The position numbers and the translations under genes are program-made. The notes under the pieces were generated by a model. That model was given only the letters and a program-made list of their open reading frames with translations, was not told the origin of the DNA and did not search any database. From a virus (lineage: Duplodnaviria > Caudoviricetes), in the IMG/VR virus record IMGVR_UViG_3300031760_000001, positions 180,785-244,784 of that record: a DNA stretch of 64,000 bases; one strand, given 5' to 3'. This document shows, in pieces, positions 18,517-59,011 of the stretch. Numbering within the stretch: position 1 is the stretch's first letter; the number at the start of each line of letters is the position of its first letter.

Positions 18517-20580
18517 TTATCTCATCTCGTTGATGTCCCAGTGCATCAAACCATCGCACTTGATAGCACCATAATATCTGTTGTTAACGAGTTTCTTCGC
18601 ATAACGTGTGCAGATACCCTTGATAGGAGCAAAGTTGAATGGGTTGTACATGGTTGGGGTAAGTGCCATAGGAACGTATGGAGCGTAGATGTAACCAGTG
18701 TCAAGCAAGCTTGTACCGTGGTGACCCATAATCAATGACCAGTGTGGAGCATATGGGTCAACAGTTACGTTGTAACGGCCCTGGAGAGCACCGATTTTCT
18801 CAATACCCATGTTGTAAGTGTCGCTTTCTGCGCTAGCGTCAGTTACGTGGAAGTATTCGAGGTCGTTCAAAACAGCGCTGATTTCAGCTGAAACGATAAT
18901 CCAGTTTGCACCACCACGAAGGGTTGATTTCTGAATCTGAGCACTGATTTGGTTAATCTTAGTCATAATTGTCTGGTTCCAGTCTTTCTGTGTGTAAACA
19001 GTTGAAGTGGTACCAAGTCTCTGCCAACCGTTGTAGTCCCAACGAGCAGTCCAAGGAGCGCTCTTACGGATGTCACGGAGGATTTCGCGGTCGATTTCAG
19101 CAGCAATCTGCTCTGAAAGGATAGCGGTCAATTCAGCCTCTGCGTCAAGGTTGTGGAATGCGCTAACGTCCTGAGCAAGTTCTGGTGACCAGGTTGCACG
19201 GAGTTTACGTTCCTCAACAGCAACGTCAACTGAAGTAAGCTGGAAGCTGACCTCACCCATTTCAGTTTCAAGCTCAAGGCTGTCATATGAACACCAAGCA
19301 ATCTTGAAGAAACCATCAATTGGGTCAGTAAGTTTGGTAAGGTCTGCCAATGCAGGTGACTGTGGGTCAATACCAATGTAACCGTCAAGACTCAAACCTT
19401 GTTTTGTAGCAGGTTTAGTGAGGTCAAGTTCGATGTACATGTTACCGTTAGCGTCAGCAACTTCCTGTTGATTCCAGTTTACGAGCTGGTCGCCGTATTT
19501 CTGGGTAACAACGCGGAACTGAATACTTTCATTAGCTGCGAAAGTTGAGAAGTCACCAGTTGTTTTGGTGATAGGTTGTGAAGCAATAACTTTCAATGAA
19601 GCCAAGAAAGCCTCGGTGTCCATTTCATTGCCGTCAGGACCAGTAAGGTGACCTGCATTGTATGAATGGAAACCACTAAGTTCAACTAAAAGTGAACGGA
19701 CTGAACCATCCTGTGCATAAACTGGAATGGTGCTGATTTTCTGATATGAACCGTCTGGGGCAATCTGAACAGGAACTGCTGTACCCATGCAGATAGTGAT
19801 TTTACCCTTTGAATTGTCATACAAGAAATCGTTGTAGAAGAGGTCATAAAGGGTCTTCTTCATGTACTGAGTAACGATTGGCTCAACAACACCTTTACCA
19901 ATAAGCTCTAAAGTCTTACCAGTTGTGTCATAAGTGTTCTTACTACCGTCAGGTCTTACTGATGGTTTGTTGATTTCATAGTAATCAGTACCATCTGTCC
20001 AAACGCGAACACCGTCTTCTTTAACGAAGTATTGTTCAACTTTAGTGATACCTTCACCCTGAACTGTTACACTCTCATCTGGGAGGTAGTAACGGTTATT
20101 CTGGGCACCGCCATTACCAATCATGTTGTGCTTAGCGTCATATGAATAAGCGTTACGGTCAGTTCTTTCATAACCCATAAGACCACGATGACGACCAGTG
20201 TCACCAGCAGTAAGCTGACCTGGAGTCTGGAAGTTCCATTCGCGCTCTGAAGTAACAGGTTTAATGTAGAACAACTTACCGATAGGAAGGTTCATAGCCT
20301 GAACTGAAACGATGTCGTTAGCAAGGAGCTTGCTGAATACACGACGGATAAGTGGGAAAACAACAGTTTCAAATGAACCACTGTTGTCAGAAGCGGTAGC
20401 TTCTCTCAAAAGGTGTTTAGCCTGGTTCTCATAAAGGGTAGCAACAGTCTCTTTAATGTTGCCTTCAAGACCCTTGACCAATCCAAGGCGGTCCCAACGT
20501 GCCTGGATGTCTTCTCTGATTTTTTTCTGTGCGTTGAGCTCAATGTTGCCAACTGCACCTGATGTGAGTAATTCTCTCAT
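18517..20580 (-). CDS. Major capsid protein (T4 gp23 family) with large insertion
   Basis: LYENQ, PLIRRV..KLLANDIVSVQAM..P.G, RKLRATWSPELAQD..AFH.LDAEAEL, EIDREI, GYIYAPYVP, TRYA. Confidence 0.96.
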   Translation of the reverse strand: MRELLTSGAVGNIELNAQKKIREDIQARWDRLGLVKGLEGNIKETVATLYENQAKHLLREATASDNSGSFETVVFPLIRRVFSKLLANDIVSVQAMNLPIGKLFYIKPVTSEREWNFQTPGQLTAGDTGRHRGLMGYERTDRNAYSYDAKHNMIGNGGAQNNRYYLPDESVTVQGEGITKVEQYFVKEDGVRVWTDGTDYYEINKPSVRPDGSKNTYDTTGKTLELIGKGVVEPIVTQYMKKTLYDLFYNDFLYDNSKGKITICMGTAVPVQIAPDGSYQKISTIPVYAQDGSVRSLLVELSGFHSYNAGHLTGPDGNEMDTEAFLASLKVIASQPITKTTGDFSTFAANESIQFRVVTQKYGDQLVNWNQQEVADANGNMYIELDLTKPATKQGLSLDGYIGIDPQSPALADLTKLTDPIDGFFKIAWCSYDSLELETEMGEVSFQLTSVDVAVEERKLRATWSPELAQDVSAFHNLDAEAELTAILSEQIAAEIDREILRDIRKSAPWTARWDYNGWQRLGTTSTVYTQKDWNQTIMTKINQISAQIQKSTLRGGANWIIVSAEISAVLNDLEYFHVTDASAESDTYNMGIEKIGALQGRYNVTVDPYAPHWSLIMGHHGTSLLDTGYIYAPYVPMALTPTMYNPFNFAPIKGICTRYAKKLVNNRYYGAIKCDGLMHWDINEMR

Positions 20581-20612
20581 AATATTATTTCCTTTTTTTA
20601 TTCGTTATAATT

Positions 20613-20620
20613 TATAAATA
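20613..20620 (-). promoter_or_regulatory. Class C motif TATTTATA upstream of capsid gene
   Basis: 32 nt upstream of the ATG. Confidence 0.65.
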
Positions 20621-20641
20621 TTACCTGTTTGCAAAAAGTTA

Positions 20642-22330
20642 TTATTTGCCAAGTCTCATAAGTCTTTCGTTGAGGTCAAGGATTTTGTTCAAGTCCTCTG
20701 ACTGGTTGAGCATATTAGTCTCGACAATCATATTCTTGTTCTGACCTTTGGCTTCTGACAACTGTTTGTCAAGCAAGTTGCTGTTGTTAACTTTGTGTGC
20801 GCTTTTCAGCTCGGTTGAAATCTGGCTGTAAAGGTTCTTGCACTCGTTAAGCGATTGTACTTTGTTAAAGCGATTCAAGATATTAATCTTTTCCTCTCTT
20901 GATGTAGCGTTTTCGGTTATAAGCTTGATGACTTTTGCTAAACTTGCGTTGATAAGGACAGCTTCGTTAAGCTGCTGCTTAATCTGGGCTGCGATATCTT
21001 TCAGTTCTTTGTTTTCGGCAAGTACAGCGCTAGCCTGTCTTTCGATAGCCGCAATTCTGTTCTTGTTTTCGTCAACTTCTTTGTAGCCATCGCCAGTACC
21101 TCTAAATTTGCTTGGCTCTTCGGCATTGTGGTGACCGTTTCTGATTTGACCACGGTCAGTATCATTACCTCTTTGTTTACGGGTAACACCACGACCGAAA
21201 CCACCATGTCTGCCACTTGTGCTGCTAGCAGCTTCATCAACTGGCATGTCAGGTGTGTTAGGCATATTCATCTCAACCTCGAAAATGGTTTCTTCGTTGC
21301 ACTCATTGTTGCACTCATTGTTACCACATTCGTCAGTGTTTTCACTCATAGGTTGTTTGGTTTTCTGTGAATATGGGTTACCGCCATTCTGACCATCGTG
21401 TCCTACCCAGCGTTTCTTGTTGTTAGCACCGCCTTTAGGAGCACCGTCGTCGAAACGGCTGTCGCCTTCACCTTCGCCTTTATCGGTTGGCATAGTCATC
21501 GCTGATTTGTTCTGATAATTGTCAGTATAACCTAAATTAACATTACCTTCATTTACCATGTCGTCATTTTGTGTTTCGTCATTATCATCGCCAAGTTCGA
21601 GTTCGAATGTCGTTTCACCGTCCTCGCCCTGGTTGTCACTTTCGATATTTCCCAAATCAATGTCATCCATCATACCTTCGCCACCCTCAGTGCCTTCTGG
21701 ACTCATACCATCGTCACCGTCAATAGCGTTGCCTTCTGGATTCATATCATTTTCGAAATCGTTTGGCTCGGCATTGTCGCCGTCATCGGTTATATCAATG
21801 ACAAATTCAGTGTCACCGTCCTCGGTCTCAACTGTTGCAGTCTCGTCATCATTTTTGATGAAGCGAAGACCGTCACCAGGTTCCATATTCTGGATGACCT
21901 TCAAAACTGTCTTGATATCTTTTCCTCTCAGGTCGTATTCACCGTCACTGTCCATACAGTCAGAAATCTCGTCCCAAACATCACCACCTTCGGCATTGGC
22001 ATCGCATTCGCCGCCTTCGCAAGCGTCAGCATTGTCGTTACCGCTTTCCAGGTCAACATTGACATCAGCGTTATCACCTTCTGGTGCAGCACCTTCGTCG
22101 TTGTTGTCATTTTCAGGCTCGGCATTGAACTCAGGCTGGTCGGTGTCAACCTCTTCTTCGTAAGAATCATTATCAGATTCAGCAAGCATTTGTCTCAAAC
22201 TCCTGTTAACCTTCTCGTCAAGCAAAGAACTTAAAGACTCTTTTGTAGATTCCTCAAGTACCTTAGCCATAGCGTCTTTGTCAGCTACAAGACTTTTGAT
22301 ATACTTAGTTCTAATTTCTTTCTTAGCCAT
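20642..22330 (-). CDS. Prohead scaffold/core protein
   Basis: Very acidic, C-terminal coiled coil, directly upstream of the capsid gene, many (L/I/V)xE sites. Confidence 0.7.
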   Translation of the reverse strand: MAKKEIRTKYIKSLVADKDAMAKVLEESTKESLSSLLDEKVNRSLRQMLAESDNDSYEEEVDTDQPEFNAEPENDNNDEGAAPEGDNADVNVDLESGNDNADACEGGECDANAEGGDVWDEISDCMDSDGEYDLRGKDIKTVLKVIQNMEPGDGLRFIKNDDETATVETEDGDTEFVIDITDDGDNAEPNDFENDMNPEGNAIDGDDGMSPEGTEGGEGMMDDIDLGNIESDNQGEDGETTFELELGDDNDETQNDDMVNEGNVNLGYTDNYQNKSAMTMPTDKGEGEGDSRFDDGAPKGGANNKKRWVGHDGQNGGNPYSQKTKQPMSENTDECGNNECNNECNEETIFEVEMNMPNTPDMPVDEAASSTSGRHGGFGRGVTRKQRGNDTDRGQIRNGHHNAEEPSKFRGTGDGYKEVDENKNRIAAIERQASAVLAENKELKDIAAQIKQQLNEAVLINASLAKVIKLITENATSREEKINILNRFNKVQSLNECKNLYSQISTELKSAHKVNNSNLLDKQLSEAKGQNKNMIVETNMLNQSEDLNKILDLNERLMRLGK

Positions 22331-28322: not shown

Positions 28323-29048
28323 TTAATCGTAATATCCAACGATTTTGTACATAATCCTACCGTTGTTGTTTGCGTCGGTCGCTTCAGTACCATACAATGA
28401 TGTGCACCTGCTGAACAATACACTTGTCTTGTTTTCCGATATAGCAACCGATACCGCTAATAGCCGATTCCTGTCGTTTGGAGCTTGTACCACAGCGGAA
28501 CCAATAAAATGTCCGAATGAACTCTTGTTCATGTTGTCCAGGTCTATTTCAACCACAATTGATGGGGTATAGCTTACATTGGCACTCCCACCAGCTCTGA
28601 TATATACTTCAACATACTTGAAACCACTCATATCCAAGCCAGTCAATTGCCAATTAGGGTTTTGTGATATGTCTGTTTCTGCTGCTAAAATACCTTCAGA
28701 CGATGTTGTGGCTTGCCAAACAACAACTGGTTTCAACCTGATACTGTCATACACACATTTGGCTGACGGATATTGTGTATCCGTTGAAGCGGCTGACAAT
28801 GATGTCACTTTGTTCGATGTCTGTTCAAATGAAGCCAGGTTTACTGTTATAGTACTGTTATCGGCTTTCGTGATAGTCAACACACCAGTGTTTTGATTCA
28901 ATGAAGCATCTGTAACCTCAGAACTGAAACAGTCGCCACCGACATATATTTTACCAGTAGCGTTGTCGAACACAACAACACCGTTAACAGCGTCGGTTGA
29001 GGCGTTATATACTTTCTTTCTTAATTTTAATTGTACATTAGTCGACAT
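28323..29048 (-). CDS. Stand-alone paralog of the N-terminal ~240 aa of the GH2 giant
   Basis: Shared RKK.YN..TDAV.GVVVFDN.TG.IYVGGDCFSS, NKVTSLS.AST..QYPSAKC, FGHFIGSAV.Q.PN.RNRLLAV, YK.VGY. Confidence 0.8.
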   Translation of the reverse strand: MSTNVQLKLRKKVYNASTDAVNGVVVFDNATGKIYVGGDCFSSEVTDASLNQNTGVLTITKADNSTITVNLASFEQTSNKVTSLSAASTDTQYPSAKCVYDSIRLKPVVVWQATTSSEGILAAETDISQNPNWQLTGLDMSGFKYVEVYIRAGGSANVSYTPSIVVEIDLDNMNKSSFGHFIGSAVVQAPNDRNRLLAVSVAISENKTSVLFSRCTSLYGTEATDANNNGRIMYKIVGYYD

Positions 29049-29072
29049 AATATGATGCAATTTATACTATTA

Positions 29073-29167: not shown

Positions 29168-29914
29168 TTATAACAAAATCTGATTAATTCTGTTTATTTT
29201 CTCATTAACCAAAGGTTTATCATTCTTTGATTCATCTGATTCAATGAACTGAACCAAATCCTGCATGTTTTTTGCAATATAAGCATTTGGGGTACTTGGT
29301 TCAAGAACGATATCCCAACCAATAAGTTCAAAATCGTTACCAACTTCAAGAACACCAAGTCTTTCCTCAACTGAACCAACACCACGTGATGAAACACCAA
29401 TCAAAATATCATTTAATATCATGTTAGCTGCCAAGTCACCACTTGTGCCAGGAATACCGTAACGTCTGTAACCTGGAGTCAAATGTAATTCCATTTCACC
29501 AATTAAGGTATGACCTTTCCATTCCAAGTTAGTGATAACATGACTAACATCATGTCCTGAAAGTGTACTTGATTCTGGGTGGTCTAATGCACCAACAGAA
29601 GCTCTAACTCTTACTCTTTCATTGATATATTTGTCAACCTCACGTTTCAAAATCATTTCTGGGTAAACCCTGCCGTTAGCATTTTTAATTCCATATTTCT
29701 GGAAAACAGCACTTACGATAAATTTATCAGGAATAACAAATTCCTTGTGATGCTCAATATCTTCTTTAATCTGAGCAACCATATCGCGGTTTCCGATAAC
29801 ATGACCTGCATCGTGTTCAATCAACAAGCCAGTACCAGTCTCACCTTTCTTTACCTCAGTGAGATTACCACGTTTGTCACCATATTTTCTTAATATTTCT
29901 TGTGTTATATACAT
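29168..29914 (-). CDS. Prohead protease (T4 gp21 family)
   Basis: KNANGRVYP, GALDHP, GVSSRGVGS, WDIV.EPSTPNA (H/S/D triad). Confidence 0.95.
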   Translation of the reverse strand: MYITQEILRKYGDKRGNLTEVKKGETGTGLLIEHDAGHVIGNRDMVAQIKEDIEHHKEFVIPDKFIVSAVFQKYGIKNANGRVYPEMILKREVDKYINERVRVRASVGALDHPESSTLSGHDVSHVITNLEWKGHTLIGEMELHLTPGYRRYGIPGTSGDLAANMILNDILIGVSSRGVGSVEERLGVLEVGNDFELIGWDIVLEPSTPNAYIAKNMQDLVQFIESDESKNDKPLVNEKINRINQILL

Positions 29915-32451: not shown

Positions 32452-34503
32452 TTATTTTTTTTCATCGGTTATGTGCTTCTCCAAACCTTTCGCAATTGAA
32501 TTAAGTTCCTCATTCACCAGGAAACTTTTCTTATACAACGGTGTATTCAATTCCTGTCTTTCCCTTTCTTTCGCTTCATTCACTTTTTTCAAGAGCAAAT
32601 GCTGATAATGTTTGGTTTTAGTCATAAGGTCTTTTTTAACTGTTTTCTGCTCGTTTATGGTTTTCTTCATCAATCGGTCGAAAAAGATTTCATTCAATGG
32701 CTCAGCACTTTCACTACCACTGTCATCACCACCTTCTGATGCTGCTGCATCATCCATAGACATGTCACCCTCGGCACCAGTCATTTCGCCACCCATATCA
32801 TCGCCAAGGCCACCATCGTCTAATCCTCCAGGCATTCCACCGCCAGGCATTCCGCCTCCGCCTCCCATGTCATCTTCCTGTCCTTGACCGCCAGCTGTGT
32901 CGCTATATTCAGCGCCAGGTTCACCATAAAGGTTGTCAACCTTGTCAAACAATCCAGTGCGTTTGATAATCATTATTGTCTTTTCAAGTTCAGCAGCCAA
33001 AGCCTTTTCAAGTCTCAATTCTTCAAGGTTGTCACTAATCTGTTTGTCACTCCAGCCAAGAATCTCTTTCTGGGCACGGGTAATTGAGTACAACGGCAAT
33101 CCGCCACCTGGGTCAGCAACCGCACTTTTAGCCATTTCAATTTTCTTGCTTAAATTGTCAAGTTCCATCATTTCAGCCTGTGATGAAGGGTTGTTCATTG
33201 TCAAACTGAAATTGGTAAGGTCATCCTCAAAACCAAGCAAATACAAATGGATGATACACACTTTGGTAAGTTCCATAAGCATCATCTGCTGCACTCGGTT
33301 TATTGTTTTGGTAAACCTGACATCCAACAATGAAAGGTTTTTGCCATCACCAGCAACCTCCTCAAAATTAATGAACGGTTTTGGAACCCTTAACGCTGTG
33401 CAAAGTTTATTCTGGACAAATTTAATGTCATCCATTGCGGTAAGGTTGTTACCAGCGGACAATGTTTCAATAGGATTCGGTTCACTTGGGTCACGTACTG
33501 GAATAAAATAATCATCCATATTGGACAATATGTTTCTTCTCAAGTCAATCTGACCAGTCAACGGGTCATAAATTGGAGTTCTTTTGAAGTTATTGGCAAC
33601 CTCATCCATATATGCTGGAACATCCTGCTCGTCAATTGCGCCCACGTTGACCTTGAACACACGTCTTTCAACTGAACGTTCAAGACGGTACATAAGCATC
33701 ATATCCTCCATCATTGAAAGCATACGCCAGTGACGACGGGCTTTATTCAAAGCACTTACGCCATATGGCAAATACAATGAGTCATAAAGGAGTCTGAAAT
33801 GTGCAATCTGCCAGTTCCTGTAAGGGGTAAATTCGTTCTTTCCAACCCAGATGAATTTTGTTGAATCTGGTAAATCCACATCAATGTTAGCCACGTTAGC
33901 GAATCCTGAACTGTATGGATTATCCATACCATTCTCAAAACGCTGCATCTCATATACTGGAAGCTGTTTCCATCCAATGATACCGTTATCCTCTGTTATG
34001 TTCAAGAGCATAAATGTATTACCGTACTTGACAGTGCTTCTTGTAATCATAGGGAATATGATGTCAGCTGACAGACGGTTATATATCAAATCTTCAAGGA
34101 TTGATTTGATACGTTCTGATTTCGATGTGACATTAATCATCATACCATTTGGTTTGATGTATGTTGCCTCTTCCATATATATATCTAGGGCTGCACCGAT
34201 TTCAGGGAACAAGTCCATCATATCGGCTTCCCTGTACATCATCTGCACCTCAGTCATGTTGGCTAGGGCATTGTTCTGGGTTTCATACTGAGCCCTTTTC
34301 CATTGTTTAGCTAATAACCTCTGTTGTCTTAACTGAGTCAGCTTTTGTGTATAGTCTTCCTTTGACCTGGTTGTGTATATCACGTCATTACTACCAAGCC
34401 CAGCGTAATTATGAATACTACGGCTGTAGTTGGTAGAAGTTGGTGATGGTATCGCTGTTCCACCGCCAAAGGTCTTGTTTAATCTCTGAAATATAGTTGG
34501 CAT
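32452..34503 (-). CDS. Portal protein (T4 gp20 family)
   Basis: YRE..MM..FPEI..ALD, IAHFRL, MEDMM..YRL.RS.ERRVF..NVG, DYFIPVR, IETL..G.N, L..ALRVP; acidic Gly-rich tail. Confidence 0.95.
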   Translation of the reverse strand: MPTIFQRLNKTFGGGTAIPSPTSTNYSRSIHNYAGLGSNDVIYTTRSKEDYTQKLTQLRQQRLLAKQWKRAQYETQNNALANMTEVQMMYREADMMDLFPEIGAALDIYMEEATYIKPNGMMINVTSKSERIKSILEDLIYNRLSADIIFPMITRSTVKYGNTFMLLNITEDNGIIGWKQLPVYEMQRFENGMDNPYSSGFANVANIDVDLPDSTKFIWVGKNEFTPYRNWQIAHFRLLYDSLYLPYGVSALNKARRHWRMLSMMEDMMLMYRLERSVERRVFKVNVGAIDEQDVPAYMDEVANNFKRTPIYDPLTGQIDLRRNILSNMDDYFIPVRDPSEPNPIETLSAGNNLTAMDDIKFVQNKLCTALRVPKPFINFEEVAGDGKNLSLLDVRFTKTINRVQQMMLMELTKVCIIHLYLLGFEDDLTNFSLTMNNPSSQAEMMELDNLSKKIEMAKSAVADPGGGLPLYSITRAQKEILGWSDKQISDNLEELRLEKALAAELEKTIMIIKRTGLFDKVDNLYGEPGAEYSDTAGGQGQEDDMGGGGGMPGGGMPGGLDDGGLGDDMGGEMTGAEGDMSMDDAAASEGGDDSGSESAEPLNEIFFDRLMKKTINEQKTVKKDLMTKTKHYQHLLLKKVNEAKERERQELNTPLYKKSFLVNEELNSIAKGLEKHITDEKK

Positions 34504-37253: not shown

Positions 37254-38387
37254 TTAATTTTGCTCAATTTCTTTCAAAAGTTCAGCTGCTGTATATTCAT
37301 TGTTGTCGTTAATTGAATACTTTGAATTATTAACTTGAACAAAGTTGTCAAAGTCATCAGCTTCTTTGTTATATTGTATGGTATCAATAAGTTCTTTTGT
37401 CATTGACAAACCCTTTTTAGTTTGCTTAAATGCGTTTTGTAGATACAAATTGAATATTTCAGGTTTTAATCTGGAAAGTTCCATTATAATGAAATTTGAA
37501 CCAGTTTCATCCAGGTTTCCACCACAATTTTCAATGTCAGACATAAGTATACTCCATAAAGGAATGCCAAGTCTCATATCCCAATTTTCAGCTAATCTAT
37601 AATCAGCTTTTTTCAAAATATAGTCGATTTTGTCCTCATCATCTGGCAATCCCTGCTGTGCTGCTGTTTCAAACAAACCCCTGACGGTATATTCCAAAAG
37701 AACTGGAAAAATTATACCTTCAGCATCAATTTTGATTCTCTCGCCATTATTACCAATATACACATCCACTTTACCACTGCAACATCTTTCAATGCTTTTT
37801 ATTGTATCTGGTTGATTATACAACAAAGCTATATTGTATTTGGTTATTTCAGCATACAAAGGAACCAGTCTTGGATTTATTTTATAAACCTCACGAATAT
37901 AATATTCAATATTGGTTCCGTAATACATTGATGCGCCAGTAATTAAAGCATTCACCATCCTCCTCTTGTATATTTCATCGCTTAAATATCTCATTTCATC
38001 AATATCATTGAATGAGAAGTCTGATGTTGCCTCAGGTGTCATCCTGTACTTTGACATATCACATTCTTCAACCAAATGTGACTCAATGTCAATGGTGTCC
38101 TCTGGTATATCGAAAATAGTTGCACAAACGTCAGCACATAATTTTTCAAGCGCTTCCTTGTTAGTTGATTCAATTTTCTGGCACTCAGTTAAAAGTTCAC
38201 TTAGTTTTTTTGCAATTTCTTTAGTTGACATTTCCTGACCTTCAAATGCTGACATTACACGATTGTACTGAGTTTTCAAAAGAAAACCAATAAATGTCTC
38301 TTCCTCTTCTGGAGGAAATGCTGGATGGTCACCCAATGATGTGGTGTTGTTCTTAATAGCTTGTATTAAAAAATCAGGTAGTTTCAT
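37254..38387 (-). CDS. Hypothetical protein (head/packaging module)
   Basis: 377-aa ORF upstream of terminase. Confidence 0.65.
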   Translation of the reverse strand: MKLPDFLIQAIKNNTTSLGDHPAFPPEEEETFIGFLLKTQYNRVMSAFEGQEMSTKEIAKKLSELLTECQKIESTNKEALEKLCADVCATIFDIPEDTIDIESHLVEECDMSKYRMTPEATSDFSFNDIDEMRYLSDEIYKRRMVNALITGASMYYGTNIEYYIREVYKINPRLVPLYAEITKYNIALLYNQPDTIKSIERCCSGKVDVYIGNNGERIKIDAEGIIFPVLLEYTVRGLFETAAQQGLPDDEDKIDYILKKADYRLAENWDMRLGIPLWSILMSDIENCGGNLDETGSNFIIMELSRLKPEIFNLYLQNAFKQTKKGLSMTKELIDTIQYNKEADDFDNFVQVNNSKYSINDNNEYTAAELLKEIEQN

Positions 38388-41304: not shown

Positions 41305-43113
41305 TTAACGTCGATAATATGTATTAAGTATTTCTTCGGATAATCCTGAATCAATTACAACCAGTTCAGGACTACCGTCACGCATAACCATTCCGTATGT
41401 TGAAATCCTTGTCAAATCACCAAAAGGCAATTGATAGTCACCCATCAGATTAAATATACGTGGCACAAAACCGTAGTCATCTTCATCATATAATTTATCA
41501 ACAAGTGCGTCCGCCTCATCTGTTGTCATGGTAAACAAATGAGTCTGTCTGCCATTATAACAATACCTGTTATAATAATATCTAACTAAATCACAATAAG
41601 TCTCAAAAGGTAAACCAATCAATCTTTCAAAATCTTCCTCTTTTGCAGGAACACAATTTTCCTCAACGAGCCACATATAATTGTCATCACAATCAAACAC
41701 CTGTACAACCATACTGCCATATCTAGATGTCTGTTCTTCAAACTCATTTTGGGCAATGCCTTTTTTGTTTTTAGCTAGTTTCAAAACTTTTTCATCATCT
41801 ATCTCAAAAATAATCCTGGATGAACCAGAACCGAATGATGGACCCAACATCTGTTTGCAATATTTCAATCTGCCAGCAAATGATTTAATTGATGAAAGCG
41901 TCTGTAAATTAAATTCTGTCATAGCCGCTTCATTAATGGCGCTGACATCATCTGTGTTTATGAAATTATCCATGTTAGCTGCTGGCATTCCGTCATCTTC
42001 AGGCGCTGGTGGTTCAGGCGTTCTGAACGGATTTTCTTCTGGAGTGTTTGGCAGTATTGGTTCAGGTGTGGGTTGGGCTTCAATATTAAGCAGTTTTTTA
42101 AGTTGTGCTATACGGTCAGTCAAAAGCCATTCAAGGTCTCGCTTACTATATACCCCAGGTGTAATCTGTTTGATTCCCATCCTTTGCACTGCATCGTGTA
42201 AATCTGCTGTTGTGATTGTATTGCACTTTAACACTTTTTTGAAACGTCCTAACCAGGAATTCAAATACACATTGCCATATCCTGGATTACCACCCTCTTT
42301 TAAAAGTTTCGCCTGTTTTTCTGTAATCCTGACAATCTTTCCAGTGACTTCATCAATGGTGTTACTGCGGTCATATACATTGTTTATGTAATTCCACAGT
42401 TTTTCAATGTACCCCATATGTTTTATCACTTTCCATATGATGTTTCCAGTTGACATTTCCTTTTCGCTGGAAGCCAGACCTTCGCTACGCATGTTTTTAA
42501 GTTTCGTGTATATGTTCTCAACCTCGGTCGAAAGCTTCTTCATTTTGACCTTATCATCCTCGTTGTCCAATTTGTCAAACAAGTCATCCAGTTTGGTCAT
42601 CTGTTTTGCACAGAAACTTTTGATATATTCTTTGTTAAGTTTTGAATCATTCAAATTTTCAGGTTCCTTCACCCACTTGTTCTTCTCCAGTGAATAAACA
42701 CCAGTCGATTTGGCTGGGTCTGATGAATCCTCGACACTTATCTCAACTGGAAAATCCTTAATTGTCAATTCCGTATGTGTGCTGTTCCACAATTCTTTCT
42801 TTGAATTGAAATAATCTTTAACGAAATCAGTTTTCTTATATATGTCACTGAAATTATATACAATGTGAATATCCACATCCGAATATTTTGACCAGTTGTA
42901 GTTGGCAATTGAACCAGTCAGAACAATATCGGACGGTTTGACCCACTTCACTTCCAGGGATTCCACAAAGTCGTCGGCAATATCCAGCAACTTCAGCCTA
43001 ATCTGGGAGTCAAGTTGACCGTCTTCATTAAAGAACTCAGGGTTGAGTTTGTCCTTAACCTTAAACGGTTTCATATCAATATCGTTTGTTTCAACCTCGT
43101 TAATATTTTTCAT
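41305..43113 (-). CDS. Pol-beta-type nucleotidyltransferase plus protein-kinase-like fusion with internal leader motif
   Basis: LTGSIANYNWSKYSDVDIH (GS..DxD); KIVRITEKQAKLLKE; GSGSSR..VLKLA..QNEFE..GDL..IDSG. Confidence 0.75.
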   Translation of the reverse strand: MKNINEVETNDIDMKPFKVKDKLNPEFFNEDGQLDSQIRLKLLDIADDFVESLEVKWVKPSDIVLTGSIANYNWSKYSDVDIHIVYNFSDIYKKTDFVKDYFNSKKELWNSTHTELTIKDFPVEISVEDSSDPAKSTGVYSLEKNKWVKEPENLNDSKLNKEYIKSFCAKQMTKLDDLFDKLDNEDDKVKMKKLSTEVENIYTKLKNMRSEGLASSEKEMSTGNIIWKVIKHMGYIEKLWNYINNVYDRSNTIDEVTGKIVRITEKQAKLLKEGGNPGYGNVYLNSWLGRFKKVLKCNTITTADLHDAVQRMGIKQITPGVYSKRDLEWLLTDRIAQLKKLLNIEAQPTPEPILPNTPEENPFRTPEPPAPEDDGMPAANMDNFINTDDVSAINEAAMTEFNLQTLSSIKSFAGRLKYCKQMLGPSFGSGSSRIIFEIDDEKVLKLAKNKKGIAQNEFEEQTSRYGSMVVQVFDCDDNYMWLVEENCVPAKEEDFERLIGLPFETYCDLVRYYYNRYCYNGRQTHLFTMTTDEADALVDKLYDEDDYGFVPRIFNLMGDYQLPFGDLTRISTYGMVMRDGSPELVVIDSGLSEEILNTYYRR

Positions 43114-43180
43114 ATATAAGGAATATATCATATATAAATATAATCCAATTAAATAAAATAAAATAAAACAGTAAATTCAT

Positions 43181-43334: not shown

Positions 43335-44525
43335 ATGAAATTAAACAGTACTAACAAAACACAAACAACTGACGTACCTAACCCAACAGAAAAAACAGCT
43401 AAAAACATAACAAGACTTGTTAACGGAGGCAAAATACCAACACCCAAAGAAATTATGGCTTATCTGGATGAACGTGTCATCGGTCAACAGGACGCGAAGA
43501 AACGTTTGTCTATCGCTGTGCACAACCATTACAAACGCGTTTTTTCCAACATCTGCGGACTTGGAAACGACGGCGAATTCAAAGACATTGAAATCGACAA
43601 ATCCAATGTCATTATGCTCGGACCTACTGGTACGGGCAAGACGTTCCTTATTCAAAATATCGCCAAGATGCTTGGTGTACCATGCCACATCCATGACTGT
43701 ACCAAACTGACCGAGGCTGGTTATGTTGGTGAGGATGTGGAAAACGTTCTTACTGGCTTGCTTATGGCTTGCGACTATGACGTTGAAAAAGCGCAGATAG
43801 GTATTGTGTGCCTTGATGAAATCGACAAATTAGCCAAACGTGGTGAGAATATGTCCATTGTCCGTGACGTGTCTGGTGAGGGTGTGCAACAGAGCCTGTT
43901 GAAGATTGTTGAGGGTTCAGTTGTTGGGGTTATGCCACAAGGTGGTAGAAAACATCCAGAACAACCTTTGATTCCTATTGACACAACCAACATCCTTTTC
44001 ATTGGTATGGGTGCATTTGTTGGTGTTGATGAGATTGTCAAGAAACGAACCACCAAGACATCATCAATCGGATTCAACAACAATACCACAAACAAAATTA
44101 CCATTAACGAAGACCGTATCCTGGATTATGTCAACGCAATTGATTTGAAGAAATTCGGACTTATCCCTGAATTAATCGGTCGTTTCCCTGTGATAACACA
44201 CACAAACCAGTTGTCGAAAGACGACCTTGTAAGAATCATCAAGGAACCCAAAAATTCAATTATGAAGCAATATCGGAAACTGGCATATATTGACGGCAAG
44301 AATCTGAAATTCACCGACGATGCCATTGATATTATTGCTGAAACAGCCATTCTGACTGAGACTGGAGCCCGTGGTATCAGGTCTATTCTCGAAACTGTGT
44401 TGAATGACTTTATGTTTGATATTTCAGACAGTGACAATACCGAAGTTGTTATTGACAAGGAATATTGTGAAAAATCGTTGAAACAGATATTAGAGTTATC
44501 TGATATATACAAAAAAGCGGTCTAA
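43335..44525 (+). CDS. clpX: ClpX ATPase lacking the N-terminal Zn-binding domain
   Basis: VIGQ..AK, KSN...GPTGTGKT, LTEAGYVGEDVE, DEIDK, RDVSGEGVQQ, GGRKHP, IGF, LIPELIGRFP, TGARG. Confidence 0.95.
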   Translation: MKLNSTNKTQTTDVPNPTEKTAKNITRLVNGGKIPTPKEIMAYLDERVIGQQDAKKRLSIAVHNHYKRVFSNICGLGNDGEFKDIEIDKSNVIMLGPTGTGKTFLIQNIAKMLGVPCHIHDCTKLTEAGYVGEDVENVLTGLLMACDYDVEKAQIGIVCLDEIDKLAKRGENMSIVRDVSGEGVQQSLLKIVEGSVVGVMPQGGRKHPEQPLIPIDTTNILFIGMGAFVGVDEIVKKRTTKTSSIGFNNNTTNKITINEDRILDYVNAIDLKKFGLIPELIGRFPVITHTNQLSKDDLVRIIKEPKNSIMKQYRKLAYIDGKNLKFTDDAIDIIAETAILTETGARGIRSILETVLNDFMFDISDSDNTEVVIDKEYCEKSLKQILELSDIYKKAV

Positions 44526-46708: not shown

Positions 46709-46724
46709 TTTGAGTCCTTTTTTA
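46694..46724. terminator. Bidirectional terminator between convergent genes
   Basis: AAAAGGACTC-loop-GAGTCCTTTT. Confidence 0.85.
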
Positions 46725-48347
46725 TTTAATCCTGTTAGGTATATTTAGTCTATTTTTGATTGCCCCCCATAAACCTCTCGTGGCCTTTATGCATTCTTCT
46801 TCGGTTTTATATGGTTTACCATCCTTACCAATAAAGATTGGCTGAGTTTTGTTTTCATCAAAATAAAATGTTGTTATGCCTGTATTATAATCATAATCAC
46901 CACTCGCATTAACCCATGTATTTGTGTTATTCATATTACCTAATATTGGATTTTTGGTATATGAATACATTAGAATAATTTTTCCGATATTATTTGTATC
47001 ATATCCATTATTTGATGTTATGCCATAAATATTTGGATTATTGAAGATTTTAATATCAGCTGGCCAATTCAATGGATTCTTGTCTGGATATAAGAGTTTC
47101 ATTGTTTTTTTGGATAAAAAATTACGTTTAGTAGTATAAACTCCATTATAGCAATCGTATGTTATCCAAAAACCGTTATCTTTTTCTTCAACGCGAGGTT
47201 TAATTGATACTTTATCCCCATTATTATTTTGTATTACCAATGGTTTAAACATTTCAACGCCAGTGTTCGAGTCAATTAGTATACCACGTCCATCTCTATC
47301 TTTTGTAAAGACATTTCCGTTATAAAATTTTGGTTTTCTGGTGTAGTCTTTTCTTTTCAATATATTGGCATCATCATCTTTAAAAACAATATAATTGTAT
47401 TTTTCTTTTGGGTTATTGGTGTTTAAATCATCACCTTCTCTATTATTTCTAAAAGGCGCCACTTTAATACCAGTGTAACCTTTATTTGCTAAAAACATAC
47501 TAACATCTTTAGGTGTGCCAAATTTATGAATTAACATTCGATATTGTTCACCGAAAGTTGAATTTTCTTCCCCTGGCAAGCCTTTAATTGTTGGTCCATC
47601 CCATAAAATATAGTTACTTCCATTATCATCTGGTATTTCCACATTGTAAGCGTAGCTACCCTCTTTTTTTGTTTTGAGGTCATATGTGGGCATTTGTTTT
47701 ACTGCATTTTTATACCCCCGATGAACATGTGGGTCAGTTGAAAAATAGTGACCCCAACCATAAGACTGATTTCCACAACCACTACTCATATGTGATGAAT
47801 CAAAACTATCAAATTTATGTGGACTTGCGTGTTTTACATTAAGTTCCTCGATACCTTCATTAACGGATGTGGTTTTATTCTTAGTATTTTTCTTGTCATT
47901 ATCCTTTTTATTGTTGTCTTGTTTCTGTGACTTTTTATGATTTTTGAATTTTTCAATCATATCATCACTGATTGCGTTCACACTCAATTGACCTGTCAAT
48001 TTAACTTTTTTATTTAACCAGTCATCAATAATTTGGTTATAATAAGCCAATCTGGAAGCGTCATCTTTAATGAAACGCCTGAATTTATCATTAATTACAT
48101 CAAGCAGTTCCTCTCTTTTGAGTTTCTGCAAGGGTTGTCCGTTCACAACGTAGTTAATTGCAAGTGTTTGACAAGGCAACCCGTCAACCCCCACATCGCC
48201 AGCATAATCAACTGCAGCTTGATAAAATTTGTTCAGGTAATTGACTATATCACTAACCTGGTCAGAATTCACTACAAGTGACTCTTTGAGGTACTTGTTG
48301 ATAAGTTCCTGTTCCTGTTGTTCTGTTATGTATATGACTTTACTCAT
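46722..48347 (-). CDS. Leader-motif protein with ADP-ribosyltransferase (ART-PolyVal-like) domain
   Basis: MSKVIYITEQQEQELINKYLKE; after SVNE: HASPHKFDSFD...G.G.QSYGWGHYFS...Y.VEIPD...GYTGIK...NYIVF. Confidence 0.7.
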   Translation of the reverse strand: MSKVIYITEQQEQELINKYLKESLVVNSDQVSDIVNYLNKFYQAAVDYAGDVGVDGLPCQTLAINYVVNGQPLQKLKREELLDVINDKFRRFIKDDASRLAYYNQIIDDWLNKKVKLTGQLSVNAISDDMIEKFKNHKKSQKQDNNKKDNDKKNTKNKTTSVNEGIEELNVKHASPHKFDSFDSSHMSSGCGNQSYGWGHYFSTDPHVHRGYKNAVKQMPTYDLKTKKEGSYAYNVEIPDDNGSNYILWDGPTIKGLPGEENSTFGEQYRMLIHKFGTPKDVSMFLANKGYTGIKVAPFRNNREGDDLNTNNPKEKYNYIVFKDDDANILKRKDYTRKPKFYNGNVFTKDRDGRGILIDSNTGVEMFKPLVIQNNNGDKVSIKPRVEEKDNGFWITYDCYNGVYTTKRNFLSKKTMKLLYPDKNPLNWPADIKIFNNPNIYGITSNNGYDTNNIGKIILMYSYTKNPILGNMNNTNTWVNASGDYDYNTGITTFYFDENKTQPIFIGKDGKPYKTEEECIKATRGLWGAIKNRLNIPNRIK

Positions 48348-48718
48348 TAATCCCAATCAGCATTTTTTATTAAATAAACTATTTGGTCAAAATTGGCTTT
48401 TGTGTATGCAAGGGCTGATTCGTCATCATCCTTGAATATTTTAAAATCAATAAATCCCTGCTCATCTATTCCAGCGTCTACATCTGGGATGTGATAATAT
48501 TCTTCAAGGGGTGCTAAAGGATTTTTTTCTCTTGTGTTTAAAAACCCGACTAATTCATTGTTATAGAATATTTGTTGCTGATGTATTCCAGGTTTCATTT
48601 CTTTGCTATCACCAAATGTAAATTCTTCTGAATTAATGTTTTCACCAAACATTTCATTAATAACAGAGGTTACCATTTCATTTAGTTTACCTTCAGTTAA
48701 TTTTATTACTTTTCCCAT
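48347..48718 (-). CDS. Leader-motif protein, unknown cargo
   Basis: MGKVIKLTEGKLNEMVTSVINE; TATTTATA at 48738-48745. Confidence 0.7.
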   Translation of the reverse strand: MGKVIKLTEGKLNEMVTSVINEMFGENINSEEFTFGDSKEMKPGIHQQQIFYNNELVGFLNTREKNPLAPLEEYYHIPDVDAGIDEQGFIDFKIFKDDDESALAYTKANFDQIVYLIKNADWD

Positions 48719-48732
48719 TGTCTTATATTTTA

Positions 48733-51210
48733 TTAATTATAAATATCATTGTATTGAAAAACAAAACCTTTTTCAACATTGTTATTTATGATATAATCAG
48801 TCAGTTTATCCTCCAACTGGAATTCAATTTCCCTTAATATAGGTCTTGCGCCATAATCACTTTCATTTTTCACTTTTTCAAAAATGGAATCAATTAATTT
48901 ACCAGTCAATATTTCATTATCCAGATGGTATCCAAGCGATTCAAGTTTGGTATTGACCTTTGCCACTTCATTGATGATAATCTGTCTTAAATTATCGTCA
49001 GTCAGTTTATTAAAATAACATATATTGTCTATACGATTTATAAATTCTGGTTTGAATGTCTTCTTGATTGCGTTTTTGATGATATCTCTGTCACGGTTTT
49101 CCTCATCATGGGCATTGAAACCGATATGTGCCATTTTTTCAGACACATCCTTGGCACCGATATTTGAAGTCATAATTATAATGACATTCTTGAAGTCCAC
49201 AACCGTTCCCTTGTTGTCACTCAATCTACCCTCATCAAACACTTGAAGGAAAACGTTGAACACTTCATCATTAGCCTTTTCAATCTCATCAAGCAGCAAC
49301 ACACAACGGTTGTTTTTCTTTATAGCTTCAGTCAAGACACCGCCGTCATCATAACCAACATAACCTGGGCTTGTACCGTACAGTTTGGCTGCACTTGTTT
49401 TATCTGAATATTCCGACATATCCAGGCGCACAATATTCTTTTCGTCACCGAACATTTCATACGCCAGTCTTTTAGCCAGGAAACTTTTACCAACACCAGT
49501 CGTACCAACAAACAGCATCACAATAGGCTTATTGGGGTTTGACAAACCAACTCTTTGTCTTCTGACAGCCCTTGTGATATCCTCAATGGCTTCATCCTGT
49601 CCAATGACAACTGAACGCAAATTATCTGACAGTGTTTTCAGTTTTTGTCTTTCATCATCATCCAGTTCAGTAAGTGGGATATTAAGCATTTGGGATACCG
49701 AAACACGTATGTCGGAAACCGTTATTTCGGTTCTTTGATTAGAATTGTTTAATCTGTTTTCAATCTGATTTATTTCGTTGTTTATCCTGATTTCCTCCCT
49801 TATCAACTGGTCTTTCCTGTCAAAGTCTTCAGCACTTGAACTGTTTGGTATTGAATTTTTTTCAATTTCAATTTCATTAAGTCTTTGACGTAGATTTCTG
49901 ATTGTTTCATTCTCACCCTCTTTCATTCTGACATACGCGCCAGTTGTGTCAATTATATTCAGGGCTGATGCTGGACAATTCTCGTTTGTTATGAATCTTT
50001 TCGCTAATCTGATACTCTCGTTTATACATTCATCACTAAATGACACGTTATTGTAGTCTTCATATATTTCCGATTTTGTTTTGACAATATCAAACAACAA
50101 CCCATCATCTGGAACCTTTATTTCGATTTTGTTTACTAGTCTTTCAAAATCAGGTTTTGATTTGACATATTTTGCGTATGCGTTTTCATTCATTGTGAAT
50201 ATGGTACAAACACTCTGGGTTTTAAACAATTCAGTTAGGAACATATAAGTGTTAGCTTCATTCTCCTTGTTGGCAAACATATTCTCGGTCTTATCAATGA
50301 ATCCTATATATTTGTTCATTTTAACCATTTCCTTTACAATGAGGCTTGTGATTGTGTCGCCAAATTCCATGACGTATTTATCCCTGAACTGTTTCGGGCA
50401 ATTCTGTTCATATATCCTTTTAGCCAACAAATTAACAATGGTTGTCTTTCCAACACCACTTGGTCCTACAATAGCCACCGTATTTCTTTCATATTTGCTG
50501 AAAATATTGAATATCTTGTCAATGATGTCATCATATCCAATCAAGTTGTCATATGCGCCTGTCGATGCGATTCTAACAAGATTCTTGCAGTTGGTTTCAA
50601 CAATATTGTTTTCGTTTGGTATCACCCTGTTCGGCTGTGTATTTCCAGTTTTACCGAGGAATTTGTTAAGCTCATCAATGGTAAGAGTTGTTGCGCCTGA
50701 ATCGGAATCAATGGATTTCGTTTTTTTCCTGTTCCATTTGTTCGCTTTTATCTCCTTGTTATTGACATTTGCTGTGGTGTTATATGCTATCACAGTGTCA
50801 TTAACCTGGTCTGGTGTAACTCCGAGCATTGTCAATTGCTTAACTATTTCAGGGTCATTGTTTATTATTGAATTCAACATCAATGAACTGGTAACAAGAC
50901 TGGCACCGCTATCCATAATCTCGCCAGCCAGTCTGTCATATACATCGGAAAACTCTGGTTTGTCATTCTGTTTCATACTCTCAGCGCCATCAATCATGAT
51001 TCGGTCAATAACATATTGTTTGAATTCGTTGATAGTGCTATCCATCATCAATTTAGAAATGACGTTGTATGCGTCACACGACTTCTCCTCAATCATAGCC
51101 AACAGAAGATAGTTGGGTGTGATTATCTGTATCGGAAACTCAACTATATACTGCTGTTTTATTTTATTAATAAGTGATTTTAGTTCATAAGATAGTATAG
51201 GCTCTGCCAT
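48733..51210 (-). CDS. ClpC/ClpA-like AAA+ unfoldase (degenerate first ATPase ring)
   Basis: Clp N-domain-like start; D1 GPSGVGKT with Walker B FIDKTE; D2 GTTGVGKS, RLDMSEY, PGYVGYDDGG, LLDEIEKA, IGF, FKPEFINRID, YGARP. Confidence 0.9.
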   Translation of the reverse strand: MAEPILSYELKSLINKIKQQYIVEFPIQIITPNYLLLAMIEEKSCDAYNVISKLMMDSTINEFKQYVIDRIMIDGAESMKQNDKPEFSDVYDRLAGEIMDSGASLVTSSLMLNSIINNDPEIVKQLTMLGVTPDQVNDTVIAYNTTANVNNKEIKANKWNRKKTKSIDSDSGATTLTIDELNKFLGKTGNTQPNRVIPNENNIVETNCKNLVRIASTGAYDNLIGYDDIIDKIFNIFSKYERNTVAIVGPSGVGKTTIVNLLAKRIYEQNCPKQFRDKYVMEFGDTITSLIVKEMVKMNKYIGFIDKTENMFANKENEANTYMFLTELFKTQSVCTIFTMNENAYAKYVKSKPDFERLVNKIEIKVPDDGLLFDIVKTKSEIYEDYNNVSFSDECINESIRLAKRFITNENCPASALNIIDTTGAYVRMKEGENETIRNLRQRLNEIEIEKNSIPNSSSAEDFDRKDQLIREEIRINNEINQIENRLNNSNQRTEITVSDIRVSVSQMLNIPLTELDDDERQKLKTLSDNLRSVVIGQDEAIEDITRAVRRQRVGLSNPNKPIVMLFVGTTGVGKSFLAKRLAYEMFGDEKNIVRLDMSEYSDKTSAAKLYGTSPGYVGYDDGGVLTEAIKKNNRCVLLLDEIEKANDEVFNVFLQVFDEGRLSDNKGTVVDFKNVIIIMTSNIGAKDVSEKMAHIGFNAHDEENRDRDIIKNAIKKTFKPEFINRIDNICYFNKLTDDNLRQIIINEVAKVNTKLESLGYHLDNEILTGKLIDSIFEKVKNESDYGARPILREIEFQLEDKLTDYIINNNVEKGFVFQYNDIYN

Positions 51211-57802: not shown

Positions 57803-59011
57803 TTACACAAAATTAAGTGTGATACCGATAGTGGTTGGGTCAATGACAGTGTTTTGTTTGTTAACACCGTATGCATATACAACCTGGTTGTGTTCACCCA
57901 TGTTATTGGCAGTAACCTTAACACCATTGTATTTGCAGTTCTTGACATTGATTGTCCAAGTTGAAATCTCGGTGTAATCACCATTAAGTGCATGGTCAGT
58001 GCTTGCAGGTTGGTAGATAGCAAGACCAGCCCAAGCCCAATCTGAACCGTCAGGTGTACCCTCTTCGTATGTCCATTCAATATTCTCAAAGTTTACAACA
58101 ACATTCTTTGCGTTAAGATAGTTGGCAAGTCTGATGACATTTGAATTGTTGGCATTCAAATTGAATTTTGAATCCTTGATTGTAATAACAGCATCATCAG
58201 CTGGAGTGTAAACATTGATTAAATTGTGGGTCAAACTTGGATTGTCAATGTTGATTTTGCTTGCGTTAAGCTCGTGAAGACCGTCATAGTTTTCATTGGT
58301 TGACTGTGCACCCTCAAACATGTTGTAAACAGTGGTTTCGGTATCTTTGTCAACAGTGACGTTCTTAATATCAACAACAGGTGCTGTGTATATGATTTTA
58401 CCATTGCTTGAACCTTTGTCACCTGACACTGTAACAGTGTCAATAGTCAGTTTGTCAACAGCGTTGTATTTAACTGAACTTGACACATTGGCTTCGGCAA
58501 CCATAAGTTCTTTGTAATAATTGTCACTGGTCATAGCATTTGCTGTATCGTCACCTACAAGTGCTACCTTAACCTCTTCGGTATTCTCTGTCGGTATATC
58601 CTCAGGGGTATCGGCTTCTTCATAATCCGATGGGATTACTGGACCTTCCTCTGGGTCACCATACAAATGAAGGTCGTCAGCTTCATTGCCATAATAGTTC
58701 AATGGCTCACCAGCTGGATATTCACGCTGCAACGCATTGTCCTCACCATAGGCTTTGGTTTCCAATGCTGTTGGAAGCATATTCTCGTTATTGGTGAAAA
58801 ATGACATTTGGTCGCTGTGTTGTTCTGAGTAATCATCTGCGCTCATTGGTTCAGCTACTGTATTATAAGCGTCATCAACAACAGTCTCATTAATGAAACC
58901 TTTTTCCTCAAATTCGTTGATTCCGCTTTCATCACCAGCAGGAACATTTACAGCATACTTTTCTTCCTCAAAACCCCAAGCGGCAAAAGGATTTCTGGTA
59001 TCTAATTTCAT
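57803..59011 (-). CDS. Acidic N-module plus beta-helix-like C-terminal domain (probable virion protein)
   Basis: First ~120 aa nearly identical to the 59048-59497 product; beta-rich Asn/Val/Ile C-terminus. Confidence 0.65.
   Translation of the reverse strand: MKLDTRNPFAAWGFEEEKYAVNVPAGDESGINEFEEKGFINETVVDDAYNTVAEPMSADDYSEQHSDQMSFFTNNENMLPTALETKAYGEDNALQREYPAGEPLNYYGNEADDLHLYGDPEEGPVIPSDYEEADTPEDIPTENTEEVKVALVGDDTANAMTSDNYYKELMVAEANVSSSVKYNAVDKLTIDTVTVSGDKGSSNGKIIYTAPVVDIKNVTVDKDTETTVYNMFEGAQSTNENYDGLHELNASKINIDNPSLTHNLINVYTPADDAVITIKDSKFNLNANNSNVIRLANYLNAKNVVVNFENIEWTYEEGTPDGSDWAWAGLAIYQPASTDHALNGDYTEISTWTINVKNCKYNGVKVTANNMGEHNQVVYAYGVNKQNTVIDPTTIGITLNFV

Follow-up and report, generated by a model that had tools for sequence, protein, structure and literature searches.

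The window examined here, a stretch of 64,000 nucleotides (positions 180,785 to 244,784 of IMG/VR record IMGVR_UViG_3300031760_000001), forms the terminal part of a linear virus record of 245 kb, which is 69% complete and has a GC content of 36%. The phage is a jumbo phage, and the window carries a T4-like head cluster with genes for the large terminase, portal, prohead protease, and major capsid protein, as well as a probable scaffold gene that was placed by position and has no family match. On the minus strand, a single open frame (41305..43131, 608 amino acids counted from the first ATG) encodes a nucleotidyltransferase (NTase) domain, a small middle domain, and a protein kinase-like domain in one chain, with hydrophobic-x-Glu triplets at the domain borders. 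We propose that the product is a polyprotein that is probably loaded into the capsid and cut there by the prohead protease.

A probable polyprotein gene in a T4-like head cluster

Residues are numbered from the first ATG, as in P0001; Met7 (43113) appears the likelier start, because homologs begin there, databases call a protein of 602 amino acids, and the sequence TATTTAT lies 27 nt upstream of it. An assembly artefact is unlikely, since more than 60 full-length homologs are known from many samples. Close relatives of the gene lie on contigs of up to ~400 kb, and their record labels, STEW19 and TONG22, are those of studies on the rumen of cattle and the gut of buffalo. The gene is flanked by a divergent clpX and a gene for 538 amino acids, a placement kept in L001-L003, L015, and L018, and clpX is divergent from the NTase gene also in the distant relatives L022 and L023. 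The ClpX-like ATPase gene occupies window positions 43335-44525 (+), and a ClpB-like gene lies at 48733-51210 (-).

Read from the N terminus, the chain holds I-N-E12; the NTase motif G73-S74..D85-x-D87; I-D-E261; a tag-like peptide at 265-279 ending in L-K-E279; a Pro/acidic linker at about 352-398; I-N-E401; and the kinase-like elements, namely a G-loop at 434-439, K451, E465, D572, and D594-x-G596. The earlier note on this DNA, made from the letters alone, had listed this succession of motifs and had placed Glu motifs at the apparent domain borders; every named motif is present, in that order, with I-N-E12, I-D-E261, and I-N-E401 at the borders. The polyprotein holds 14 hydrophobic-x-E triplets in all, and its two [ILV]NE do not exceed the genome-wide rate of 2.25 per 1000 amino acids (1.37 expected, P=0.40). 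The motifs are informative solely by their position, which homologs conserve, and the case is a comparative one.

The peptide at 265-279 is a true and complete copy of a leader tag with which the products of at least 17 further genes of the genome begin. Scored with a matrix derived from 17 such N-terminal tags, its own copy not among them, it exceeds every stretch of five shuffled proteomes. It is of strand-turn-helix type, with a helix at 271-280 in the AlphaFold2 (AF2) model. The idea that one tag carries all the enzymes proved too simple: the tag is there, as a second, internal element, and a predicted propeptide of 6 residues stands at the N terminus. Between the middle domain and the kinase, the linker retains ~50% identity among homologs versus 70-96% in the flanking domains.

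The TATTTAT upstream of the polyprotein gene is conserved in L001-L003 and is a candidate late expression signal. The same sequence precedes the capsid, scaffold, portal, terminase, sheath, and tube genes, at -28 for the portal, -37 for the sheath, -38 for both tube and scaffold, and -40 for the capsid. It is found within 60 nt upstream of 8 of 10 chosen head, tail, and focus genes, 9 of 15 tagged genes, and 35 of 184 other open reading frames (ORFs).

Table 1. Features of the polyprotein gene and of the head genes discussed with it, in window coordinates
Feature	Position	Strand	Basis
Polyprotein ORF	41305..43113	-	602 aa from Met7 (P0001 residues 7-608)
N-terminal propeptide, 6 residues, ending I-N-E12	43096..43113	-	sequence; predicted cleavage
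Cassette 1, Pol-beta superfamily NTase + C-terminal three-helix bundle	42352..43095	-	Pfam, PHROG, AF2
Junction I-D-E261, natural NTase C-terminus	42349..42357	-	homolog stop-or-Glu pattern
Internal leader-tag copy, residues 265-279, ending L-K-E279	42295..42339	-	matrix score 18.6 bits
Cassette 2, 72-aa folded domain (residues 280-351), optional, replaceable	42079..42294	-	pLDDT ~86-91
Pro-rich acidic low-complexity linker	41938..42078	-	sequence
Junction I-N-E401 then Ala, insertion point for extra cassettes	41929..41937	-	homolog comparison
Cassette 3, minimal protein-kinase-like domain (residues 402-608)	41308..41928	-	AF2, Foldseek, conservation
TATTTAT, candidate late promoter element	43134..43140	-	27 nt upstream of Met7
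Prohead protease, T4 gp21 homolog, proposed processing enzyme	29168..29914	-	phmmer to 5JBL E 2.5e-15; PHROG 207 E 7e-36
Major capsid gene + probable scaffold gene, internal controls for cutting motif	18517..22330	-	PHROG 138 (capsid)
Portal gene, C-terminal tail rich in motif	32452..34503	-	PHROG 213

Folds of the three cassettes

The NTase cassette (residues 13-260) carries the hG[GS]..DxD motif, with G73, S74, D85, D87, and E130 invariant in homologs. It scores above the cut-off of Pfam NTP_transf_2 (PF01909), a model that matches 40 of 40 aligned members, and it matches PHROG 36119 (function not annotated) at E 1.7e-39. The AF2 model, with a mean predicted local distance difference test (pLDDT) score of 85, adds a three-helix bundle to the core. 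Its best NTase match is the minimal NTase 2rff (VIA Z 7.3, root mean square deviation (rmsd) 4.3, 104 aligned); FAM46/TENT5 and AadA reach Z 6.0-6.5 and MNT reaches Z 5.8. Foldseek ranks CdnE cyclases (E 6e-3) and AAD(9) highest, and in the CdnE comparison the core alone aligns (TM ~0.2, rmsd ~18). These structure matches hold at superfamily level only, and on sequence and model together we assign the cassette to the Pol-beta superfamily. A phmmer search of the PDB with the whole polyprotein gave no match, and a wide structure search with the NTase model returned mainly generic three-helix bundles (Z 8-9) and was judged uninformative. The Atlas clusters of the family are 98-100% viral.

The kinase cassette is modeled with a pLDDT of 91.6 and a predicted TM score (pTM) of 0.85 as a bilobal kinase-like fold, with Foldseek matches to APH(2'') (E 3e-4) and CK2 (E 9e-4) and VIA Z values of 7-8 versus IRE1, MPS1, ULK4, and ArkI (protein kinases, 7.8-8.2; ArkI, 7.1). 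Among 157 dereplicated copies, the K, E, G, and final (Mg-binding) D are present in all and the catalytic D in 153. The C-lobe is shortened, ending ~14 residues past D-x-G here and mostly 12-18 in homologs. The canonical H-x-D-x4-N loop and full C-lobe are absent, and no His is among the commonest residues before the catalytic D; the catalytic-loop Asn position (D+6) is N in 63 copies, S in 63, and T in 14, including the focus protein, and the position taken as the last N-lobe strand is E in 138 and Q in 17. The cassette matches PHROG 4301, and its family comprises 2,284 clusters at E<1e-10, with no Pfam kinase model among the matches of its members. By sequence and model it belongs to the protein kinase-like superfamily and is not a canonical Hanks-type/APH kinase. 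It resembles the minimal kinases SteC (sequence E 0.002), NleH1 (Z 5.8), and ArkI in its reduced C-lobe, without family-level similarity; the phage T7 kinase is the functional precedent for host takeover (PMC5512222). Matches to Asteriusvirus (E ~0.01, N-lobe only) were too weak and were not used. For both enzymes, AF2, Foldseek, and structure matches agree with the folds predicted in the earlier note.

Several further genes bear on the kinase family. A second member, 28% identical, is encoded at G000 177056-178333 (L007:910-2187), where another type of N-terminal module and a tag-like peptide precede it; this two-part architecture is common among the kinase representatives. At least three tandem diverged kinase domains, mostly divided by the same Glu sites, occur in P0122, P0124, P0140, and P0222. 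A conserved 377-aa gene follows terL at window 37254-38387 (-), and distant homologs of it form fusions with the kinase in P0196, P0221, P0225, P0226, P0237, and P0252.

With regard to substrates, we modestly prefer protein modification to RNA or nucleotide chemistry. The lesser of the two possibilities, which still deserves serious consideration and is independent of cleavage, is that the NTase serves in RNA repair or nucleotide signaling (RlaP-, CCA-, or CD-NTase-like) and that the kinase acts on RNA or small molecules (ArkI- or APH-like). It draws on the CdnE and AAD(9) rows that lead the Foldseek list, on the FAM46/TENT5, AadA, APH, and ArkI matches given above, and on the PNK-like and NUDIX partners found in homologs. 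These matches are, however, weak and tied with those to minimal NTases (2rff, MNT) and to protein kinases, and weak sequence similarities hint at two protein modifiers, DrrA (E 0.19, NTase) and SteC. PADLOC gave no match, and the 25 families listed for members include neither an RlaP nor a SMODS Pfam model, a result that excludes neither class.

The middle domain is the least defined of the three. A weak winged helix-turn-helix hint, with a match to the AbiEi N-terminal domain at merely E 0.018, makes it possibly DNA-binding; it has no short homologs, no Pfam consensus, and no Atlas match. It is swapped for other modules in P0051-P0074 and L001 and is found at the C terminus in P0077-79, P0110, and P0113. 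A relationship to lambda integrase (E 0.11) was rejected, and a MerR-like assignment was a guess without support. The domain shows no sign of enzyme character, so that of the two or three enzymes previously suggested for this chain, two stand and the third does not.

Conservation of the domain junctions

The earlier note had suggested looking for homologs that shuffle their domains at the same Glu junctions, and this is what they do. Architectures include NTase alone, kinase alone, NTase-X-kinase, X-NTase-kinase, kinase-NTase-X, and kinase-kinase-kinase, with PNK-like, NUDIX, ART-like, and InPase partner cassettes. Among 46 dereplicated homologs, 105 of 117 homology breakpoints fall within 8 amino acids of a hydrophobic-x-E versus 38 expected, and 45 fall near [ILV]NE versus 5.6 expected.

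At the start of the kinase, a hydrophobic-x-E stands 5-9 residues before the core in 139 of 147 copies (50%-identity cluster representatives; background 16%), both where the kinase is N-terminal (76 of 82) and where it is internal (63 of 65). P3 is Leu or Ile in 118 copies and P1' is Ala in 73, while P2 takes at least 15 different residues; Glu-Ala at this junction is invariant in 37 aligned kinases, and stand-alone kinases have a short leader that ends at the site. The profile used to rank the 150 kinase representatives contained the Glu-Ala columns, a small possible bias, and the positions were re-anchored with a core-only profile. A P3 Leu or Ile, a free P2, and Glu amount to the rule of the T4 protease gp21, which cuts after L/I-X-E (PMC9026906). 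Extra cassettes are inserted at this junction: L015 and L020, alleles with 99% identity to either side of it, differ exactly there in the presence of a single cassette of 232 codons bounded by L-N-E.

The natural end of the NTase is sharply defined. Just before the position of E261, 44 of 90 dereplicated copies stop (42 exactly there, 2 one residue earlier), and Glu occupies that position in 36 of 36 copies with at least 20 further residues and in 2 of 10 short-tailed ones, with a Glu background of 7.7%. The Glu is therefore dispensable for the NTase fold and is retained only where sequence follows; such a stop-or-Glu pattern would be expected if a cut restored the native NTase end. The AF2 model is disordered at this joint (pLDDT<50 over P0001 259-268). 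Upstream of the NTase core, a hydrophobic-x-E is found in 76 of 90 dereplicated homologs.

These patterns bear on the alternative that the protein is packaged and stays largely intact, as what Iyer et al. call a polyvalent effector, with only the N-terminal propeptide removed and the internal motifs representing fusion relics or partial or redundant sites. Fusion of two tagged genes would automatically leave a tag and a hydrophobic-x-E at the joint, the internal tag does copy the N-terminal tag completely, and N4 virion RNA polymerase and ArdC are delivered uncut (PMC5512222). Relics should decay, however, yet the Glu at the NTase end persists in every long fused form, at a position that belongs to the stop of the upstream domain and not to the leader of the next gene; and internal kinases almost always keep their site, whereas just 11 of 65 show the tag-like pattern. 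We therefore regard this alternative as improbable, although it is the strongest rival to cleavage.

A by-product of DNA composition, in which A/T-rich microhomologies at L/I-N-E codons act as recombination points without meaning for the protein, seems very hard to sustain. In the allele pair L015 and L020, the cassette boundary has an overlap of ~5 nt at the L-N-E codons, and [ILV]NE is frequent in this 36% GC genome at the rate given above. Set against this, the junction codons vary synonymously (AAC/AAT, GAA/GAG, ATT/ATA/TTA/CTG/CTC), which argues that the constraint acts on the protein and largely refutes a DNA-level origin. P2 varies while P3 and P1 stay fixed, and the pattern extends to XacN1 and to S-CREM2, a cyanophage with 48% GC. 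Microhomology may aid shuffling but cannot account for the protein pattern.

Related polyproteins and possible sources of cassettes were also observed. A tagged polyprotein of 1417 amino acids with 7-8 xNE sites lies at G000 64540-68793 (-), and a duplicated module of it recurs in the kinase- and NTase-containing polyproteins P0127, P0129, and P0164. A tagged protein of 544 amino acids is encoded at window 46722-48356 (-). Its orthologs in L001 and L003 have only 158-160 amino acids and its extra part comes after V-N-E, so it probably represents another polyprotein that has acquired cassettes. Two genes at G000 46794-47270 and 47460-47954 (-), PNK-like (AAA_33) and NUDIX-like, stand alone without a tag and are 49-57% and 33% identical, respectively, to cassettes in homologous polyproteins, and because of this resemblance cassettes may come from ordinary genes.

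Proposed maturation and relation to known systems

We consider it likely that the polyprotein is loaded into the capsid and cut by the prohead protease; the gp21-type enzyme that the earlier note invoked is encoded in the window (Table 1). Late expression would yield a single precursor, which would be recruited to the prohead core by the short propeptide at its N terminus, by the internal basic-hydrophobic tag, or by both, much as T4 internal proteins rely on a capsid targeting sequence. As the head matures, the gp21-type protease would cut after Glu at the exposed joints, E12, E261, probably E271/E279, and E401, releasing an NTase of ~249 amino acids with a nearly native C terminus, the small module with its linker, and a kinase of ~207 amino acids. 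Once freed, the enzymes would be ejected with the DNA and would act as infection starts, the kinase phosphorylating and the NTase nucleotidylating what are most likely host macromolecules (protein most likely, RNA possible), in order to take over the host or blunt its defence. We infer packaging, cleavage, ejection, substrates, and any anti-defence role of the polyprotein alike, and nothing specific was found in favor of the anti-defence role that had been suggested for it. With a cut site closing every cassette, cassettes could be gained, lost, and reordered without harm to the products.

The capsid gene and the probable scaffold gene serve as internal controls for the cutting motif. The capsid protein has L-R-E followed by Ala near residue 60, and the probable scaffold holds four [ILV]NE (P=0.04). 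The portal holds four in its final 94 amino acids and none in its initial 500 (P=7e-5 uncorrected). This portal tail of 94 codons sits behind a Gly/acidic linker and is possibly a C-terminal propeptide; for comparison, the T4 portal is uncut and that of SPN3US is cut at its N terminus.

Cultured relatives provide a link to the virion. Stand-alone NTase homologs occur in Synechococcus phages S-CRM01, S-B68, and S-CREM2, in Maribacter phage Molly, and in uncultured Lak phages, and those whose starts were inspected have a short leader ending in hydrophobic-x-E. ORF156 of S-CREM2 (30% identity, E 3e-31; hhalign 99.8%) has a 7-residue leader ending in I-S-E; according to Table 3 of PMC10665884, virions purified on CsCl yielded 6 unique peptides of it, with 15.2% coverage. 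The virion table lists gp154, 155, 156, and 160 and lacks gp157-159 and 161, and the proteome also holds a kinase-like protein. The virion-detected gp160 (L014:4843-5736, 297 amino acids) has several internal hydrophobic-x-E sites between short modules. For the kinase, ORF170 of the cultured phage XacN1 is a homolog (99.6%) with a T4-like leader ending in L-S-E followed by Ala; the text of the XacN1 paper does not mention ORF170, and the Molly paper shows no proteomics.

The virion data also bear on the possibility that this is a late cytoplasmic or morphogenesis protein, its enzymes acting in the infected cell on proteins of host or phage while assembly proceeds, possibly alongside ClpX, and its tag docking to the prohead or scaffold. 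The late-type motif and the location in the head cluster would fit equally well, the divergent clpX neighbor is conserved, and co-purification could account for the S-CREM2 detection. We nevertheless think such a role quite unlikely: T4 gp21 substrates are prohead components (PMC9026906), the S-CREM2 virion table includes four of the neighboring products and omits four others, and the ART-like, NUDIX, and InPase partners are typical injected cargo.

Among known systems, T4 internal proteins IPI-III and Alt come closest: a gp21-family protease is encoded in the same genome region and the motif is L/I-X-E (PMC9026906, PMC5694885). The Alt propeptide has 6 residues and is cut at ITE-6 (PMC5694885), as long as the one proposed here, and Alt is a modifying enzyme carried as cargo, as we propose for this chain; the candidate late expression signal would be a further parallel. 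Unlike in T4, where terminal propeptides are trimmed from single-function proteins, the sites here lie between folded, exchangeable domains, and the shared tag differs in sequence from the T4 capsid targeting sequence (CTS) and is also internal. The ejection proteins of phiKZ and SPN3US share Glu-specific maturation cleavage at several sites per precursor, with a different motif, S/A-X-E, and with cuts that clear long propeptides; enzyme cassettes freed from one chain are not reported in these papers (PMC5694885, PMC10052503).

Polyvalent proteins (PMC5512222) are similar in combining several conflict-type enzymes per chain, in their mosaic homologs, and in their proximity to packaging genes, and also in having kinases that lack the C-terminal subdomain with an intact active site, Pol-beta NTases, and InPase and ART partners. 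Their proposed release is MPTase autoproteolysis, whereas here we propose the prohead protease. The polyprotein further differs in that three folded domains fill the chain without a MuF, ArdC-N, DarB, or MPTase anchor (Pfam, PHROG), in that the kinase lacks the conserved His before the catalytic Asp and the last-strand Gln of the polyvalent-protein clade, and in the added helical bundle and viral Atlas clusters of the NTase. Cluster C cyanophages S-CREM2 and S-CRM01 offer a true NTase-cassette homolog, ORF156, in a virion proteome, as a single-domain protein listed as hypothetical in PMC10665884. Our literature searches, which covered few subscription papers, found no description of phage polyproteins cut by a prohead protease.

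Several points weigh against the proposed cleavage. The specificity of the protease of this phage is assumed from T4. The motif has three residues and occurs 14 times in the chain, and the homolog counts include related sequences, which are not independent events. Homologs P0069-74 lack the N-terminal Glu, and a simple tag pattern fits just 35 of 82 stand-alone kinase leaders. The documented cuts in T4 and SPN3US remove propeptides or shred the scaffold, and the T4 and SPN3US literature cited here documents no case in which one chain gives rise to several folded enzymes. The virion-detected ORF156 is a single domain, and the S-CREM2 authors caution that such enzymes may co-purify with virions.

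More tentatively, as a generalization we would not quite bet on, T4-like jumbo phages may use true polyproteins that are cut in the capsid by the head-maturation protease, with the stop codon and hydrophobic-x-Glu interchangeable at domain ends and with two undescribed, widespread enzyme families as core cargo that disarms defence or seizes host machinery before phage gene expression. If so, late "hypothetical" genes of huge T4-like phages could be parsed by rule into single injected proteins, which whole-ORF annotation overlooks, and T4 head maturation would widen from propeptide trimming to the freeing of several enzymes per precursor. Such a plug-and-play cassette system, with polyproteins like those of RNA viruses, would account for fast change of the injected arsenal in these phages and suggests a compact route for loading several proteins into a phage head. 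Two large uncharacterised enzyme families are named, with cultured representatives in S-CREM2, S-CRM01, S-B68, Molly, and XacN1.

Finally, three other loci in the window are recorded here. A protein with a putative head tag at 17326-18132 (+) has an endolysin-family match (PHROG 7, E 1.5e-9). The 1945-aa protein at 22467-28304 (-) has a GH2 glycoside hydrolase at its C terminus and an N terminus that resembles its neighbor at 28323-29060, and is probably a fibre or surface enzyme. The adjoining genes at 57803-59011 and 59048-59497 (-) are paralogs with Pro-Glu repeats whose first 60 residues, at least, are near-identical.

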